The notes beneath the pieces were generated by a model. That model was not told where the DNA came from, made no database searches, and saw nothing but the letters and a program-made list of their open reading frames with translations. Positions 1,725 through 59,671 of a stretch of 64,000 nt of DNA are shown one piece after another. The position numbers were made by a program, and so were the translations under genes. Each line of letters starts with the position of its first letter. The stretch's first letter is position 1. The stretch comes from an uncultured Bacteroidales bacterium (GTDB lineage: Bacteria; Bacteroidota; Bacteroidia; Bacteroidales; Bacteroidaceae): NCBI GenBank assembly GCA_902776455.1, contig CACYQI010000026.1:5686-69685 (forward strand), written 5' to 3'.

Positions 1725-2687
1725 ATGAAATTGAACATCATCGTACTTGCCAAGCAAGTACCTGACACGCGCAATGTCGGGCCGGACGCTATGACGCCTG
1801 AAGGCACCGTCAATCGTAGCGCGTTGCCTGCTATCTTCAATCCCGAGGACCTCAACGCCCTCGAGCAGGCTTTGAGACTGAAAGACCAATTCCCCGGCAC
1901 AACCGTGACCGTCATCACGATGGGTCCAGGCCGAGCTGCCGAAGTGATTCGCGAAGCTATGTATCGCGGTGCCGACGGCGGCTATCTGCTCACTGACCGC
2001 GCTTTCGCAGGGGCCGACACCCTGGCTACAAGCTATGCCCTCGCCACTGCCATCAAGCATGTCTGCCCCAACGTCGATCTCATCATCGGCGGTCGTCAGG
2101 CCATCGACGGCGATACGGCTCAGGTAGGCCCGCAGGTGGCTGAGAAACTGGGCTTGAACCAGATAACGTATGTAGAGGAGATTATTTCCATTGACCATTC
2201 ACCATTGACCATTGACCATTGTACAACTTCCGAAGGCAGAGCAAGAAATGGTCAATGGTCAATGGTCAATGGTCAATCTATAATTGTCAAGCGCCACATC
2301 GACGGCGGCGTAGAGACTGTGGAAAGCCCGCTGCCTTGCGTCCTGACCGTCAACGGAAGCGCTGCTCCCTGTCGTCCGAGGAACGTGAAGCGCGTGATGA
2401 AGTACAAGCGTTGCCTCGCTCCTATGGAGTTGCCTCAGGGCACAGGCTTCGGCGACCTGCCTTATGCTGCAGAATACGAGAAGAAGCCTTACCTGAAGCT
2501 CGGTCAGTTGAGCTGTGCCGACGTGAATGCCGACCTGCAGCAATGCGGTCTGGCCGGCTCGCCAACGAAGGTGAAGAACGTGGAGAACATCGTCTTCAAG
2601 GCAAAGGAGAGCAAGGTCTTGACCGGCAGCGACGAGGACGTGAACGGCTTAATTAAGGAATTGTTGAACGAAAGGCTAATTGGATAA
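1725..2687 (+). CDS. etfB: electron transfer flavoprotein subunit beta, carrying a 90-nt in-frame hairpin repeat
   Basis: MKLNIIVLAKQVPDTRNV... is a typical EtfB N-terminus, and etfA follows 7 nt downstream. Confidence 0.9.
   Translation: MKLNIIVLAKQVPDTRNVGPDAMTPEGTVNRSALPAIFNPEDLNALEQALRLKDQFPGTTVTVITMGPGRAAEVIREAMYRGADGGYLLTDRAFAGADTLATSYALATAIKHVCPNVDLIIGGRQAIDGDTAQVGPQVAEKLGLNQITYVEEIISIDHSPLTIDHCTTSEGRARNGQWSMVNGQSIIVKRHIDGGVETVESPLPCVLTVNGSAAPCRPRNVKRVMKYKRCLAPMELPQGTGFGDLPYAAEYEKKPYLKLGQLSCADVNADLQQCGLAGSPTKVKNVENIVFKAKESKVLTGSDEDVNGLIKELLNERLIG
2188..2277. repeat. in-frame heptamer-word hairpin (arms 2188-2220 and 2247-2277)
   Basis: (ccattga)n on the left arm and its reverse complement (tcaatgg)n on the right arm, with a 26-nt loop. 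Translated as SIDHSPLTIDHCTTSEGRARNGQWSMVNGQ. Confidence 0.9.
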
Positions 2688-2693
2688 GGAGAT

Positions 2694-3716
2694 ATGAACA
2701 ACGTTTTTGTTTATTGTGAAATAGAAGGTACGCAGGTGCAGGAAGTGTCGCAAGAGCTTCTGACGAAGGGCCGCAAGCTGGCCAACACGCTGGGCGTACA
2801 ACTCGAAGCCGTTGCTGCCGGCAGCGGCATCACAGGAAAAGTGGAGAGCCAGATTCTCCCTTATGGCGTCGATAAACTTCACATCTTCGATGCAGAAGGC
2901 CTCGCTCCCTATACGAGCAAGCCGCATACGGCAGTCCTCGTGAACCTCTTCAAGCAGGAGAAACCTCAGATTTGTCTGATGGGCGCAGATGTAGTTGGCC
3001 GCGACCTCGGTCCGCGTGTCTCGTCGGCTTTGCACAGCGGCCTTACAGCAGACTGCACCAGCCTTGAGATTGGTCCGCACGAGGACAAGAAGAACGGCAA
3101 GACCTACGAGAACCTGCTCTATCAGATACGTCCCGCTTTCGGCGGCAACATCGTGGCAACCATCGTCAATCCCGAGAACCGTCCGCAGATGGCAACGGTC
3201 CGCTCCGGCGTGATGAAGGCAGAGGTGCTCGACCCGAACTACAAGGGCGAAGTCATCATCGAAGATGTCGCCAAGTTCGTGCCAGAGGCAGAATATGTCA
3301 CCAAGGTGCTCGACCGCCACGTCGAGGCAGCGAAGAACAACCTGAAGGGCGCCCCCATCATCGTGGCTGGCGGCTACGGCATGGGCTCGAAGGAAGGCTT
3401 CGACCAACTCTATGAGCTTGCCAAAGTGCTTCATGCTGAAGTAGGTGCCAGCCGTGCCGCTGTGGATGCAGGCTTTGCCGACCACGACCTGCAGATAGGT
3501 CAGACAGGCGTCACAGTCCGTCCCAAAGTGTACATCGCTTGCGGCATCAGCGGAGCCATCCAGCACGTGGCAGGCATGAAGGAGTCGGGCATCATTATCA
3601 GCATCAACAACGACGAGAACGCCCCCATCAACACCATTGCCGACTACGTCATCAACGGCACAGTGGAAGAGGTTGTACCAAAGCTCATCAAGTATTATAA
3701 GCAGAATAGCAAGTAG
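2694..3716 (+). CDS. etfA: electron transfer flavoprotein subunit alpha
   Basis: 340 aa with the FAD-binding C-terminal block [34 protein letters not shown]. Confidence 0.9.
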
Positions 3717-3728
3717 CCTCACCCCCAA

Positions 3729-3750
3729 CCCCTCTCCCATGGGAGAGGGG
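3729..3750. repeat. GC-rich palindrome (B family), perfect 22-mer cccctctcccatgggagagggg
   Basis: The sequence is its own reverse complement. It lies 13 nt after the etfA stop and 27 nt before the DUF559 ATG. Confidence 0.95.
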
Positions 3751-3776
3751 AGAAGGAAGATACCTATTTAGATGAT

Positions 3777-4151
3777 ATGGGGTACGGAATCAAGACAACC
3801 TATCCAGACAGATACTCTCTCCTCAAGAATTTTGCAAAACAAAACCGCAGAGAGATGACATTGGCGGAACAGGTGATGTGGCAATACCTTCGTACTTTGC
3901 AGGGCTTCCATTTCAGACGTCAACATCCCATAGGAGATTACATTGCGGACTTCATCTGTCTGAAAAAGAATTTGGTGATTGAGATTGATGGAGGATACCA
4001 TACTCAGCACGAACAGCAGTTGAACGACGAAGATCGTACTGCAAAACTTGAGCAATTGGGGTATTCTGTCATCCGTTTCTCCAATGAAGCTGTTCTTTAC
4101 GACATACAAAACGTGATGCAAACAATTGAAAGCAAATTATTAACATTATAA
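3777..4151 (+). CDS. DUF559 endonuclease-domain protein (Vsr/restriction-endonuclease-like fold)
   Basis: 124 aa matching the DUF559 pattern: MTLAEQVMWQYLR..FHFRRQHPIGDYIADFICLKKNLVIEIDGGYH..DEDRTAKLEQLGYSVIRFSNEAV. Confidence 0.8.
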   Translation: MGYGIKTTYPDRYSLLKNFAKQNRREMTLAEQVMWQYLRTLQGFHFRRQHPIGDYIADFICLKKNLVIEIDGGYHTQHEQQLNDEDRTAKLEQLGYSVIRFSNEAVLYDIQNVMQTIESKLLTL

Positions 4152-4174
4152 TAAAGTCCTCTGCACCCCTTTCT

Positions 4175-4194
4175 CCCTCTCCCACGGGAGAGGG
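4175..4194. repeat. GC-rich palindrome (B family) ccctctcccacgggagaggg
   Basis: 9-nt arms with a 2-nt centre. It lies 24 nt after the DUF559 stop and 18 nt before the acyl-CoA dehydrogenase ATG. Confidence 0.9.
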
Positions 4195-58032: not shown

Positions 58033-58042
58033 ACTCGCTAAA

Positions 58043-58167
58043 ACACTCCACGGAGTATCGGCTAACACTCCACGGAGTATCGGCTAACACTCCACGGAGT
58101 ATCGGCTTACGCTCCACGGAGTATCAGCTTACACTCCACGGAGTATCGGCCTACGCTCCACGTTGTG
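58043..58167. repeat. A-family 22-nt tandem array (about 5.5 units, acactccacggagtatcggcta), mirror
   Basis: Head-to-tail 22-mers in reverse orientation relative to 8880-9085. Confidence 0.9.
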
Positions 58168-58392
58168 TTCGGTACAGCCCCCAAGCCTCTCCTATATCCT
58201 CCCCTAAAGGGAACCGATAGGTCGATGGCCGTTCCGCCTGCACCTGAGGCAACAGCCGAAGAAGGGAAAGGCAGGGACTTCCGCCCCCCTCTATGTTCCC
58301 TGTTAGGGGGAGGAAAGCGGGCGAAGAAAGTCACTTGCGGCAGTTAGCATAGAAAAATGGAGTTAATCTTTTATTAATTGCCAACTTATTCG

Positions 58393-58400
58393 TACCTTTG
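58393..58400 (+). promoter_or_regulatory. -7 box TACCTTTG for RND operon 2
   Basis: cgtacctttgcac, 16-49 nt upstream of the candidate start codons. Confidence 0.65.
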
Positions 58401-58448
58401 CACAATAATTATATAATGTATATGAACGTTAGAAACAGAATCCCCTGT

Positions 58449-59576
58449 ATGAGAAGCATGGTTCGTATGTTGGCGCTGGCGTCGCTGGCGGTCGTGGTGG
58501 CAGCTTGCGGCAGCAGTTCGAGCAAGACGAAGAAGGACCAGATCAAGTACGAAATCCGTAAGGTAGAACCCGAAACGAGGGTCTATAACATCTATATTCC
58601 GGCTTCGCTCCACGGACTGAGCGAGGTGGAGGTCTTCCCGCAGGTGTCGGGTATCATCCGCGAGGTGAACTTCAAGGACGGCTTCAAGGTGAAGAAGGGA
58701 CAGCCGCTGTTTGTCATCGACCAGACAGAACACAAGTTGAACGTGCAGAACGCTCAGGCTAACCTTGCGGCTGCGAAGGCTCAGATGGAGACGACCAAGC
58801 TCAAATACGAGTCGAACCAGAAACTTGCCGCGAAGAAGATTGTGAGCGAATACGTGATGTCCACCAGCATGAACGCCTACCATGTGGCCCAAGCCGCTGT
58901 CCAACAGGCTGAAGCTCAGTTGGCAATGGCTCAGACAACGTTAAGCTATTGCACGGTGAGGTCGCCCATCACAGGCATCATCAAGGAGAACGGCTTCAAG
59001 ATAGGCGAAGTAGCCGACCTCTCCGGTTTGCTCTGCACCGTTAGCGACGACAGCGAGATTCAGGCTTGGTTCTCTTATACGGAGAGTCAGTTGCTCGATT
59101 TGCTCGACCAATATGGTCTGAAACCCTCATCGGAAGGCTTGAAGGACATTGACGGAAAGACTGTCAGCGCGAAGCTGCCCCGCCTGAAGTTGCAGCTGAA
59201 GAACGGACAGGAGTATGCGCATGAAGGCGTAGTGACAGAGATGGGCGGCATCGTGGACCGCAAGACGGGTACCGTCATCTGTAAGGCCACCTTCCCCAAC
59301 CCCGACTACGAGTTGCGTTCCGGCCTCTCGGCTACGCTCGTGTTCCCCATTCAGATGAAGGAAGTGTTCCGCGTGCCGAAGACGGCAGCCGTTCACTTGC
59401 AGGACCACCTGATGTTCTATCGTGTAGGCAAGGACGGAACCGTGGAAGGTGTCATCTGCGAGGCAATACCTTCGAACAGCGGACAGAACTATTATGTGAA
59501 GAGTGGCTTGCACAGCGGCGACGAGATTGTCATCAACGGCGTGCAGAACTTGTCTAACGGAGTGAAAGTGAAATAA
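58449..59576 (+). CDS. RND periplasmic adaptor lipoprotein (MFP/HlyD family); start could also be ATG 58416
   Basis: MRSMVRMLALASLAVVVAAC lipoprotein signal and adaptor-type barrel-sandwich/coiled-coil pattern. Confidence 0.8.
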   Translation: MRSMVRMLALASLAVVVAACGSSSSKTKKDQIKYEIRKVEPETRVYNIYIPASLHGLSEVEVFPQVSGIIREVNFKDGFKVKKGQPLFVIDQTEHKLNVQNAQANLAAAKAQMETTKLKYESNQKLAAKKIVSEYVMSTSMNAYHVAQAAVQQAEAQLAMAQTTLSYCTVRSPITGIIKENGFKIGEVADLSGLLCTVSDDSEIQAWFSYTESQLLDLLDQYGLKPSSEGLKDIDGKTVSAKLPRLKLQLKNGQEYAHEGVVTEMGGIVDRKTGTVICKATFPNPDYELRSGLSATLVFPIQMKEVFRVPKTAAVHLQDHLMFYRVGKDGTVEGVICEAIPSNSGQNYYVKSGLHSGDEIVINGVQNLSNGVKVK

Positions 59577-59577
59577 T

Positions 59578-59671
59578 AATTCATAATTCTCAATTCATAA
59601 TTCATAATTACTTTTCGCGAAGAGTCTGGGCGTAGCCTTAATTATGAATTATGAATTGAGAATTATGAATT
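59578..59671. repeat. perfect 32-bp inverted repeat of octamer words (aattcataattctcaattcataattcataatt / reverse complement) with a 30-nt loop
   Basis: Arms at 59578-59609 and 59640-59671 are exact reverse complements. The element fills the adaptor-pump intergenic space. Confidence 0.95.

Follow-up and report, generated by a model that had tools for sequence, protein, structure and literature searches.

The window analyzed here, a 64,000-nt stretch from an uncultured Bacteroidales bacterium (assembly GCA_902776455.1, contig CACYQI010000026.1, forward strand 5,686-69,685), carries repeats of short words both between its genes and inside its reading frames. We propose, at roughly even odds (a probability of about 0.5), that this genome has been heavily colonized by several families of small non-coding hairpin elements, two of which are the counterparts, lacking an open reading frame (ORF), of one-gene cassettes. 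This origin is suggested by the match between two of the repeat families and the inverted arms enclosing two kinds of small selfish genes, one of the PF05635 and one of the DUF559 family. Insertion, polymorphism, and overwriting of the elements were demonstrated, as were the association of arms with genes, the ORF-less forms, and the co-oriented placement of cassettes within operons. The repeats fall into four or more unrelated families, namely tandem-word hairpins, GC-rich palindromes (the GC family), a leader followed by a 22-mer minisatellite, and a multi-hairpin element with GGATT-N-AATCC stems. Comparison loci from other genomes are denoted below by L numbers and homologous proteins by P numbers.

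Abundance of the repeats

Tandem Repeats Finder reported dozens of arrays with periods of 7, 8, 9, 10, or 22 nt in the window. Long hairpins, defined by an 8-nt seed and a score of at least 14, occurred at 12 loci, and 10 Markov shuffles yielded none apiece. Folding z-scores were -7.65 for the hairpin at 2188-2277, -6.0 for 5606-5699, -7.24 for 44983-45068, and -9.59 for 59577-59672, and in all four the arms mirror each other, variant units included. The 22-mer acgtggagYgtRagccgatgca matched 14 times, against 0.01 matches expected, and occupies six sites once degenerate copies found by direct reading (38440-38480 and 46700-46770) are counted. Perfect polypyrimidine/polypurine palindromes of the form CCCTCTCCC-N-GGGAGAGGG numbered 11 (0-5 in shuffles, with a mean of about 1.4), and imperfect copies bring the total above 12.

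The initial annotation, made from the letters of this stretch, had described short-word repeats in intergenic DNA and frames alike, with these palindromes at 12 or more sites and the 22-mer at six. Tandem arrays, hairpins, palindromes, and the 22-mer all proved to be far above chance, and several of the families are present at many sites and in other genomes. Its 'aacggatt' family did not stand out, as the 4 matches against 1.7 expected are not a significant count, and the pair at 43815/43882 is not a hairpin (z = -1.84). A reverse-complement arm, which had been described as usual, accompanies about half of the arrays; the rest include many single A/T-rich arrays beside promoters. The single plan assumed for the repeats is not supported; there are at least four unrelated families plus single promoter-proximal heptamer arrays.

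The window sequence, including the inserts, recurs in many independent metagenome assemblies. An assembly artefact as the source of the repeats could be ruled out because identical inserts recur in these independent assemblies. The same repeat design extends beyond the window genome to many metagenome-assembled genomes (MAGs) of Prevotella, Phocaeicola, and Bacteroides.

In-frame copies inside genes

The copies located within genes are listed by window position, with the strand in brackets.

2188-2277 (+): in-frame hairpin in etfB (1725-2687), with arms CCATTGA x4.9 and AATGGTC x4.4 and a loop of 26 nt
5606-5699 (+): in-frame hairpin in the acyl-CoA dehydrogenase gene (ACAD, 4212-5972), with words GTGAAGA/GAATTAAGA and TCTTCAC
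44960-45085 (-): in-frame hairpin in ORF 43978-46224, with arms AAGGGGC and CTTGCCC
30212-30290 (+): GC-rich palindromic element in frame in malQ (29059-31614), translated as QPSPVGEESLSPDLSKGEGVSS
17194-17212 (-): palindrome GTTGCGTTG-N-CAACGCAAC, part of a copy of a 48-nt unit, in frame between the two OEP halves of a TolC-like gene
17911-17929 (-): second copy of the GTTGCGTTG-N-CAACGCAAC palindrome, in the signal peptide of the TolC-like gene
23187-23278 (-): array of 9-nt words (GAATGCTCT family) in frame in an MBOAT gene, translated as (RAF)n
24727-24810 (-): array of 9-nt words of the GAATGCTCT family, forming the (SEYSEN)n C-terminal tail of GDSL gene 24709-25968
43815-43911 (+): two in-frame heptamer arrays (AATTCAA, GTAAATC) without a hairpin, in the C-terminal part of a BspA-type leucine-rich repeat (LRR) ORF

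The copies in etfB, ACAD, malQ, and ORF 43978-46224 are lineage-specific and frame-preserving, and they are absent from orthologues that are 73-89% identical. The in-frame colonization of housekeeping genes by palindromes, as initially suggested, is borne out by empty sites and insertion polymorphism in the comparison of orthologues and strains. EtfB is 25 aa longer than orthologues with 86-89% identity outside the insert, and 29 residues take the place of a 3-residue beta-turn between two strands of CarD (6fah_B). ACAD has gained 16 aa relative to its relatives in the linker between the last two domains. The net insertion in ORF 43978-46224 amounts to 111 nt, or 37 aa, shared with P0001 (98% identity) and P0002 (93%) and missing from P0003 (88%) and all other aligned homologues. 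The extra 30 aa of another homologue, P0023, showed no clear hairpin. An AlphaFold model of this ORF, built on a 15-sequence alignment, had a mean pLDDT of 57.7 with values below 50 in the insert region, and it was not used for placing the insert.

The malQ element is absent from most orthologues and pairs with 31643-31687, a 45-nt family in opposite orientation just past the gene. Several loops in the MalQ clade carry lineage-specific inserts that are translated GC palindromes (SPSKG...GEVWR, SLPLKG) or heptamers, and one of them, NGQWSMVNGQW, is an AATGGTC array, the word of the etfB arm. Membership of in-gene copies in dispersed families was seen for the GC family and for the GTGAAGA words of ACAD.

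At least six in-gene copies had originally been counted. Four of them stand against close orthologues; those in TolC and MBOAT were compared with solved structures instead, and by that comparison they fall in linkers. The TolC-like protein has about 26 extra residues between the OEP halves relative to CmeC (4mt4), and the MBOAT array starts exactly at the end of the DltB homology. A second array once assigned to MBOAT (24727-24810) is actually the C-terminal tail of the upstream GDSL gene. The GAATGCTCT-family word is thus read in two different frames, in MBOAT and in GDSL, which points to a repeat at the DNA level and not to selection on the peptide.

Turnover between strains and lineages

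The elements turn over rapidly at the strain level. Strain L181 shares 98.3% identity with the window across 5.6 kb. Its malQ element shows differences of +82/-13 nt, a net change of 69 nt or 23 codons, and downstream of malQ there are a 43-nt indel in the GC cluster and a 22-nt indel equal to one 22-mer unit. In the sister lineage L094/L096, in which ACAD is about 90% (89-90%) and etfA 94-96% identical to the window at the nucleotide level, GC palindromes occupy precisely the two sites at which the window has heptamer hairpins, namely the turn of EtfB and the linker of ACAD. More distant relatives have neither the etfB nor the ACAD insert. The GC replacements in L094, together with the loss of a heptamer in L092, indicate that occupied sites are re-used or overwritten and that arms slip by whole units. 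We also compared contigs L183-L189, near-clonal and about 100% identical to the window, for polymorphism; the only differences were an LRR-unit change, a change in a 367-nt unit, and differences of 86 and 45 nt.

On L092 (956-1911), the right etfB arm is one heptamer short, which shifts the frame and leaves ORFs of 183 and 141 aa. This split might be either a real slippage allele or an assembly error.

PF05635 cassettes and their tandem-word arms

The spacer between etfA and ACAD measures 10-30 nt in the sister species that were read and has a median of 26 nt over 71 loci, exceeding 300 nt in 20 of the 71. Among strains of the window species, this slot has three different fillings.

Filling 1 (window): DUF559 gene with GC-palindrome arms
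Filling 2 (L004): PF05635 gene with arms GTAGTTAA x4 and TTAACTAC x3
Filling 3 (L006): a different PF05635 gene, its arms made of AGAAGATAG-type words and the complement of these

PF05635 or DUF559 genes occupy the same slot also in MAGs of Prevotella, Phocaeicola, and Bacteroides. We scanned metagenomes with the PF05635 alignment and scored 75 genes for arms, using an arm score threshold of at least 16. Inverted arms of 7-11-nt tandem words flank 42 of the 75 genes (56%), compared with 4 of 75 mismatched flanks and 3 of 185 neighboring genes (1.6%). Of 80 PF05635 loci, 59 lie outside the etf operon and 21 inside. Most cassettes (46 of 53) stand between two co-directional genes, with gaps of a few tens of nucleotides. 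The closing stem of the L006 cassette reaches about 50 bp (z = -12). The cassette proteins of L004 and L006 match TIGR02436 at 124 and 117 bits, respectively, and score below the cut-off for Avd of diversity-generating retroelements.

A link from cassettes to ORF-less hairpins is suggested by forms at other loci. Hairpins of 100-210 nt without an ORF are found in the etfB-etfA and etfA-ACAD spacers of L035, L055, and L078; they share with full cassettes both the words and the inner junctions AAGCCAWT...ATGGCTT and AAGACAA...TTGTCTT. In L078, a full cassette lies 1.1 kb from the ORF-less hairpin. The arm words of the ACAD hairpin occur with a common junction, ATTTGCTRCCGCC, at unrelated loci and in another species, and GGAGTATA arms are common to a repeat nest of the window and the PF05635 cassettes L157/L158. 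The ATTGACC word was also found in another MAG. At an unrelated locus of the window species (L004 214-370), an array of 22 copies of ATTGACC, the etfB hairpin word, lies beside a conserved ATTTGCTACCGCC junction and a GAATGAAG array.

The DUF559 cassette and the GC palindromes

The window contains one complete cassette of the second kind.

3716-4207 (+): cassette of a single DUF559 gene (3777-4151) in the etfA-ACAD spacer, with GC arms on its left (3716-3755) and right (4158-4207)

The gene product belongs to Pfam PF04480/PF18741 and matches PDB entry 3hrl (4e-20) and, weakly, 3r3p (0.006), named 'mobile intron protein' by its depositors. We take 3r3p to be a Vsr-like homing endonuclease of the I-Bth0305I type. 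The closing stem of the cassette RNA has a z-score of -4.6. Six distinct DUF559 genes from this subfamily were examined, and every one lies between arms about 40 nt long, GCCTCACCCCC..CCCCTCTCC-N4-GGAGAGGGGAG (the end is also written GGAGAGGGG), and the dispersed GC copies of the window share this arm sequence. In L076, a 211-nt element has complete GC arms and no ORF. It had been stated that the window has no transposase; this holds by Pfam, and the statement overlooked the DUF559 endonuclease gene, which lies within GC-palindrome arms as a strain-variable cassette.

The gene occupies the etfA-ACAD slot in the window, L082, L071, L194, L204, and the complete genome of Prevotella sp. E9-3 (CP091786); the slot is empty in sister species and in most of the 71 loci, and other strains hold other cassettes there. 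There are two exceptions, namely L065, in which it lies in the etfB-etfA slot, and a protein identical to P0341 in another gene context (L202). DUF559 is 98.9% identical between two lineages, compared with 94-96% for the flanking etfA and 89-90% for ACAD. This pattern is the one expected of a free-standing homing endonuclease gene, and the pattern itself leaves the solitary palindromes elsewhere unexplained. Many DUF559 homologues and cassette genes are on contigs shorter than 2.5 kb. When viral contigs were scanned for DUF559, four distant relatives came up, and palindromic arms were present in only one of these.

Repeats in spacers and nests

Outside the genes, the repeats are gathered in two large nests upstream of BspA-type LRR genes and scattered over spacers. 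The first nest is composed of the modules listed under it.

8690-10440 (+): repeat nest of about 1.7 kb upstream of a BspA-type LRR gene
8756-8840: GC palindromes
8880-9082 and 9087-9187: 22-mer arrays
9363-9479: AATCTGCCAC hairpin
9533-10180: 162-nt units with GGAGTATA/CTCCTTGA arms
10200-10320: GGATT multi-hairpin element
10340-10420: further GC elements
56790-58400 (-): second nest, which lies upstream of the other BspA-type LRR gene and repeats 8690-10440 in inverted orientation
22380-22720 (+): leader and CAACGTGGAG 22-mers, with further copies at 38190-38520 (+) and 46660-47010 (-)
31620-31823: GC palindromes (31632-31687) and a 22-mer array (31743-31823) downstream of malQ
38622-38766: 48-nt tandem repeat x3 with the palindrome ATGTTGCGTTGCCAACGCAACAT in each unit
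46370-46510: multi-hairpin element of about 120 nt with four GGATT-N-AATCC-type stems; others at 10200-10320, 57100-57230, and 57470-57600
48684-48807: ORF-less hairpin of AACGGATT words in the acyltransferase/NigD-like spacer (z = -3.9)
49985-50071: hairpin with GC-type arms at the ddl/acyltransferase junction (z = -3.8)
52338-52515: GC-type modules (35-nt unit x2), then a TTTCAAT/TTTCAAC array x11 that abuts the stop of the PASTA gene
53395-53507: 22-nt palindromic tandem repeat CGTGCCAAGTTTGCAAACTTAA x4.6, from Tandem Repeats Finder
59577-59672: hairpin with perfect 34-nt arms of ATAATTC words, the variant unit mirrored, in the HlyD-like/AcrB-like spacer
27519-27551: single TAATTCT/TTCTTAA heptamer array that lies immediately upstream of a promoter box (TAnnTTTG)
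32913-32943, 33318-33351, 33395-33430, 36346-36364, 36555-36589, 47899-47932, and 53984-54038: similar single arrays

The 367-nt unit that varies among near-clonal contigs belongs to the second nest (57100-57600). The leader of the CAACGTGGAG 22-mers, about 180-300 nt long, is conserved across its three copies in an alignment, and an E-value search of this leader against Rfam gave no match. The 48-nt unit with the GTTGCGTTG palindrome exists as the triplet and as the partial copy within TolC. At the ddl/acyltransferase junction, where a repeat had been said to provide both a stop and a start codon, a single hairpin indeed holds the ddl stop TAG in its right arm (50058-50071) and the acyltransferase ATG (50026-50028) in its loop. 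The single arrays at 27519-27551, 32913-32943, 33395-33430, and 53984-54038 adjoin TAnnTTTG boxes, and the promoters concerned include those of tRNA-Thr, tRNA-Cys, and efp.

Possible origin of the elements

Under the proposed origin, the tandem-word hairpins would correspond to cassettes that carry a PF05635/TIGR02436 gene for a four-helix bundle (S23p/Avd-like) and lie within operons, co-oriented with their neighbors. The CCCTCTCCC/GGGAGAGGG palindromes would correspond to cassettes with a DUF559 Vsr-like endonuclease gene, one of which is present in the window. The elements might enter or overwrite short permissive stretches, namely the spacers of operons, the ends of genes, beta-turns, and linkers between domains. 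Within ORFs, selection would presumably leave those with a net length that is a multiple of three, no stop codon, and a tolerant loop as their site. After insertion, the arms may gain or lose word units, and one element type may replace another at a given site. The ORF-less copies of the window might derive from cassettes or move by the same process, and the GC family might spread by homing-like copying after an endonuclease cut. By analogy with rRNA intervening sequences, the stems could be processed in RNA by RNase III.

Several observations weigh against this origin. There is no PF05635 gene or remnant anywhere in the window, and no remnant of a PF05635 or DUF559 gene was found in the hairpin loops of the window. 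The words CCATTGA, AAGGGGC, and ATAATTC, used by the four cleanest heptamer hairpins, were seen in no PF05635 cassette, so that for these hairpins the link to cassettes rests on design and not on sequence. By our own estimate, about 1,170 heptamer classes and about 60 arrays would give one or two word coincidences by chance. The many single promoter-adjacent A/T-rich arrays are not explained by cassettes. The etfA-ACAD slot is where the DUF559 subfamily is nearly always found, and this constancy fits a site-specific resident gene better than a source of at least 11 dispersed palindromes. No target-site duplication was visible at the boundaries of filled and empty sites that were read, by inspection of the flanks and not by a statistical test. 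Finally, Pfam scans identified no transposase or reverse transcriptase among the window ORFs.

The main rival is an origin in place, in which slippage would expand a native repeat and fold-back template switching (quasipalindrome correction) would copy the arm, giving each locus its own word. These processes very likely act on the elements after insertion; as the source of the elements, we consider them unlikely. The differences in words from locus to locus fit such an origin, but the GC family and several word families are conserved at many unrelated loci in several genera. Template switching would yield the exact mirror arms with variant units, seen also in L035, yet it would not tie tandem-word arms to one gene family (56% against 1.6%). 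The observed gain and loss of units, as in L092 with one heptamer less and L004 with its 22 ATTGACC copies, and the missing target-site duplications are likewise compatible with local changes, whereas the inner junctions shared by ORF-less copies and full cassettes within one genome (L078) speak against them. EGR is encoded at the center of the etfB hairpin, and relatives show DGK or EGR there, which favors an origin in place; against it, the sister lineage carries a different, clearly dispersed element type at both protein sites.

It is still more doubtful that the repeats are ordinary non-autonomous transposable elements, resembling MITEs (miniature inverted-repeat transposable elements) or repetitive extragenic palindromic (REP) sequences. 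They would then be moved by a transposase encoded elsewhere, for example of the IS200/IS605 type or a REP-associated tyrosine transposase (RAYT), with the PF05635 and DUF559 genes as passengers. Transposition of the IS200/IS605 type leaves no target-site duplication, and the absence of duplications here would fit it. The families are dispersed and palindromic with inverted ends, yet no such transposase is encoded in the 64-kb window or the flanks examined. No RAYT (Y1/HUH, IS200-like) domain was detected among the window ORFs, and no parent insertion sequence with matching ends was found in the window or the loci examined. A transposase specific for hairpins depends on conservation of both the structure and the site of cleavage, whereas the arm sequences differ greatly among cassettes. 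DUF559 homologues often lie on the short contigs typical of multi-copy repeats, but DUF559 is itself a nuclease and specific to one slot.

Retention for function is the least probable alternative and, in our view, very unlikely as the full account: spacer stems as terminators, RNA-processing sites, or mRNA stabilizers and A/T-rich arrays as promoter elements or protein-binding sites, with in-gene copies as by-products, would agree with the hairpins in operon spacers (48684-48807, 49985-50071, 59577-59672), the arrays abutting TAnnTTTG boxes, the pairing preserved while cassette words differ, and the promoters carried by BrickBuilt elements (PMC4596501), but close relatives lack repeats at the same sites, the content varies among strains of one species, and the in-frame copies in etfB and malQ have no evident regulatory logic. 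Since function would leave origin and spread unexplained, it complements the proposed colonization and does not replace it.

Comparison with known systems

Rickettsia palindromic elements (RPE) are small palindromic repeats located in frame in housekeeping genes. The window copies resemble them in adding tolerated peptide segments by in-frame insertion, and the palindromic repeats in etfB, ACAD, ORF 43978-46224, and malQ are, like RPE, in frame and absent from orthologues. Unlike RPE, they occur in another phylum and lifestyle, as several unrelated families with tandem-word arms, gene-carrying relatives, and rapid turnover among strains.

The closest parallel for the PF05635 cassettes is found in the 23S rRNA intervening sequences, in which an S23p ORF lies within inverted repeats; RNase III cuts the stem, which replaces a small loop of the host RNA (PMC4990558). 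As in those of Coxiella and Leptospira (PMC4990558), an ORF of the PF05635 family lies inside terminal inverted repeats that form a long stem. The likeness extends to ORF-less hairpin versions, to a sporadic distribution among strains, and to the replacement of a small loop of the host molecule by an extended stem-loop. Intervening sequences sit in helix 9, 25, or 45 of the rRNA, whereas the cassettes described here sit in operon spacers of mRNA and the ORF-less hairpins in coding frames. Stems made of tandem 7-11-nt words also distinguish the cassettes from intervening sequences.

The GC family resembles REP sequences, bacterial interspersed mosaic elements, and REPtrons in having palindromes, GC-rich and 20-40 nt long, scattered over many sites and a small gene between inverted copies. 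In a REPtron, a RAYT gene lies between inverted REPs (PMC3733652, PMC6006769). The gene flanked by GC arms instead encodes a DUF559 PD-(D/E)xK Vsr-like endonuclease and not a Y1/HUH transposase; it is nearly always in one genomic slot, and copies of the palindromes lie inside ORFs. Free-standing homing endonuclease genes (I-Bth0305I type, 3r3p) are alike in that a small nuclease gene occupies one intergenic site with empty alleles and, as with DUF559, is more conserved than its flanks. Unlike these genes, DUF559 is enclosed by long GC-rich inverted arms that are also solitary at many sites.

The short tandemly repeated repetitive (STRR) sequences and small dispersed repeats of cyanobacteria, and the TAACTGA heptamers of Beggiatoaceae, Cyanobacteria, and some Bacteroidetes (PMC4679880), share abundant intergenic heptamers, often near gene starts, and nesting. 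The many different words, the mirror-image hairpins, the in-frame copies, and the PF05635 association set the present repeats apart; they show neither STRR consensus words nor a cyanobacterial host, as the nearest relatives are Bacteroidales MAGs and isolates and the words vary by locus. The 22-mer family recalls the BrickBuilt MITE of Porphyromonas gingivalis (PMC4596501), also from Bacteroidales, in which a spacer-less minisatellite of 22-23 nt follows a conserved leader and is dispersed between genes. This likeness, taken from the published description, is confined to the 22-mer family and to its layout. Of the hallmarks of a MITE, terminal inverted repeats are present, and neither target-site duplications nor a parent insertion sequence were found.

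Known kinds of element include in-frame palindromes (RPE), REPs and REPtrons, the intervening sequences of rRNA, arrays of heptamers (PMC4679880), and MITEs of the minisatellite type. In the open full-text literature, with most subscription journals outside it, we found no equivalent for gut Bacteroidales, in agreement with the initial remark that none was known for Bacteroidota. Within that literature, we found no description of PF05635 operon cassettes of the intervening-sequence type with tandem-word stems, of DUF559 cassettes with matching dispersed palindromes, or of an in-frame spread in gut Bacteroidales.

Implications

Gut Bacteroidales harbor an active layer of tiny palindromic elements that reshape operon spacers and add loops to EtfB, acyl-CoA dehydrogenase, and MalQ, and the element content differs between strains that are 98% identical. 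Such elements affect gene calling, strain typing, and metagenome assembly, and heptamer slippage can shift the frame. They also offer a testable handle on how rRNA intervening sequences and REP-like palindromes spread and on the role of the 'four helix bundle' (TIGR02436) and DUF559 genes, which are very abundant in Bacteroidota.

A bolder reading, which we regard as tentative and rather unlikely, is that the PF05635 tandem-word cassettes and the ORF-less hairpins constitute an unrecognized, widespread 'intervening-sequence' class of selfish elements in Bacteroidales operon transcripts and even in reading frames. If this were true, rRNA intervening sequences would be only the special case that came to attention before the others. 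Copying of the hairpin into new or occupied sites would then involve the Avd-like protein or, in the GC family, the DUF559 nuclease. Such protein-assisted copying of hairpins would explain how one element type overwrites another at a single protein loop.

Host genome and further observations

The host is an uncultured Prevotella-like Bacteroidales gut bacterium. In our scan, the closest genomes were uncultured 'Bacteroidaceae/Prevotellaceae' MAGs and Bacteroidales bacterium KHT7, with about 81% identity over the best segment. Pfam scans of the ORFs gave a gene map that is ordinary for Bacteroidales. The genes run in the order Band_7, Bax1-I, etfB, etfA, the DUF559 gene, ACAD, and DUF3472; BspA-type LRR genes, a GNAT acetyltransferase, a patatin/Omp85 gene, and two RND efflux operons; MBOAT, two GDSL genes, a SLOG-domain gene, malQ, YceG, and MscL; a TPR gene, more BspA-type LRR ORFs, and a 748-aa ORF without a Pfam domain; and an M48 peptidase, a NigD-like gene, an acyltransferase, ddl, a pseudouridine synthase, the PASTA gene, and efp.

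At the gathering threshold, Rfam identified in the whole window tRNAs, the Bacteroidales-1 RNA, a marginal match to Acido-Lenti-1, and nothing else. The Bacteroidales-1 (6S-like) RNA lies at 28717-28886 (-) between the SLOG-domain gene and malQ and scores 130 bits. The Acido-Lenti-1 match (38 bits, threshold 37) is one arm of an inverted repeat of about 210 nt at 37845-38055, and a hairpin resembling this inverted repeat is present at L001 3020-3096. On the same L001 contig (10210-11901), ACAD lacks 23 residues of the conserved middle domain, probably through an assembly fault.

The remaining differences from the near-clonal contigs concern genes. The two BspA-type LRR ORFs at 40635-43965 form a single 1138-aa gene in those contigs, and the window lacks 86 nt near 42222 within them, which may represent a frameshift or an assembly error. 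In efp (54184-54702), the window lacks 45 nt near 54292 that are present in all other near-identical contigs compared there; the EF-P called in the window has 172 aa, against 173-187 aa elsewhere. The near-clonal contigs also vary among themselves by one 69-nt LRR unit in the gene at 54891-56789.

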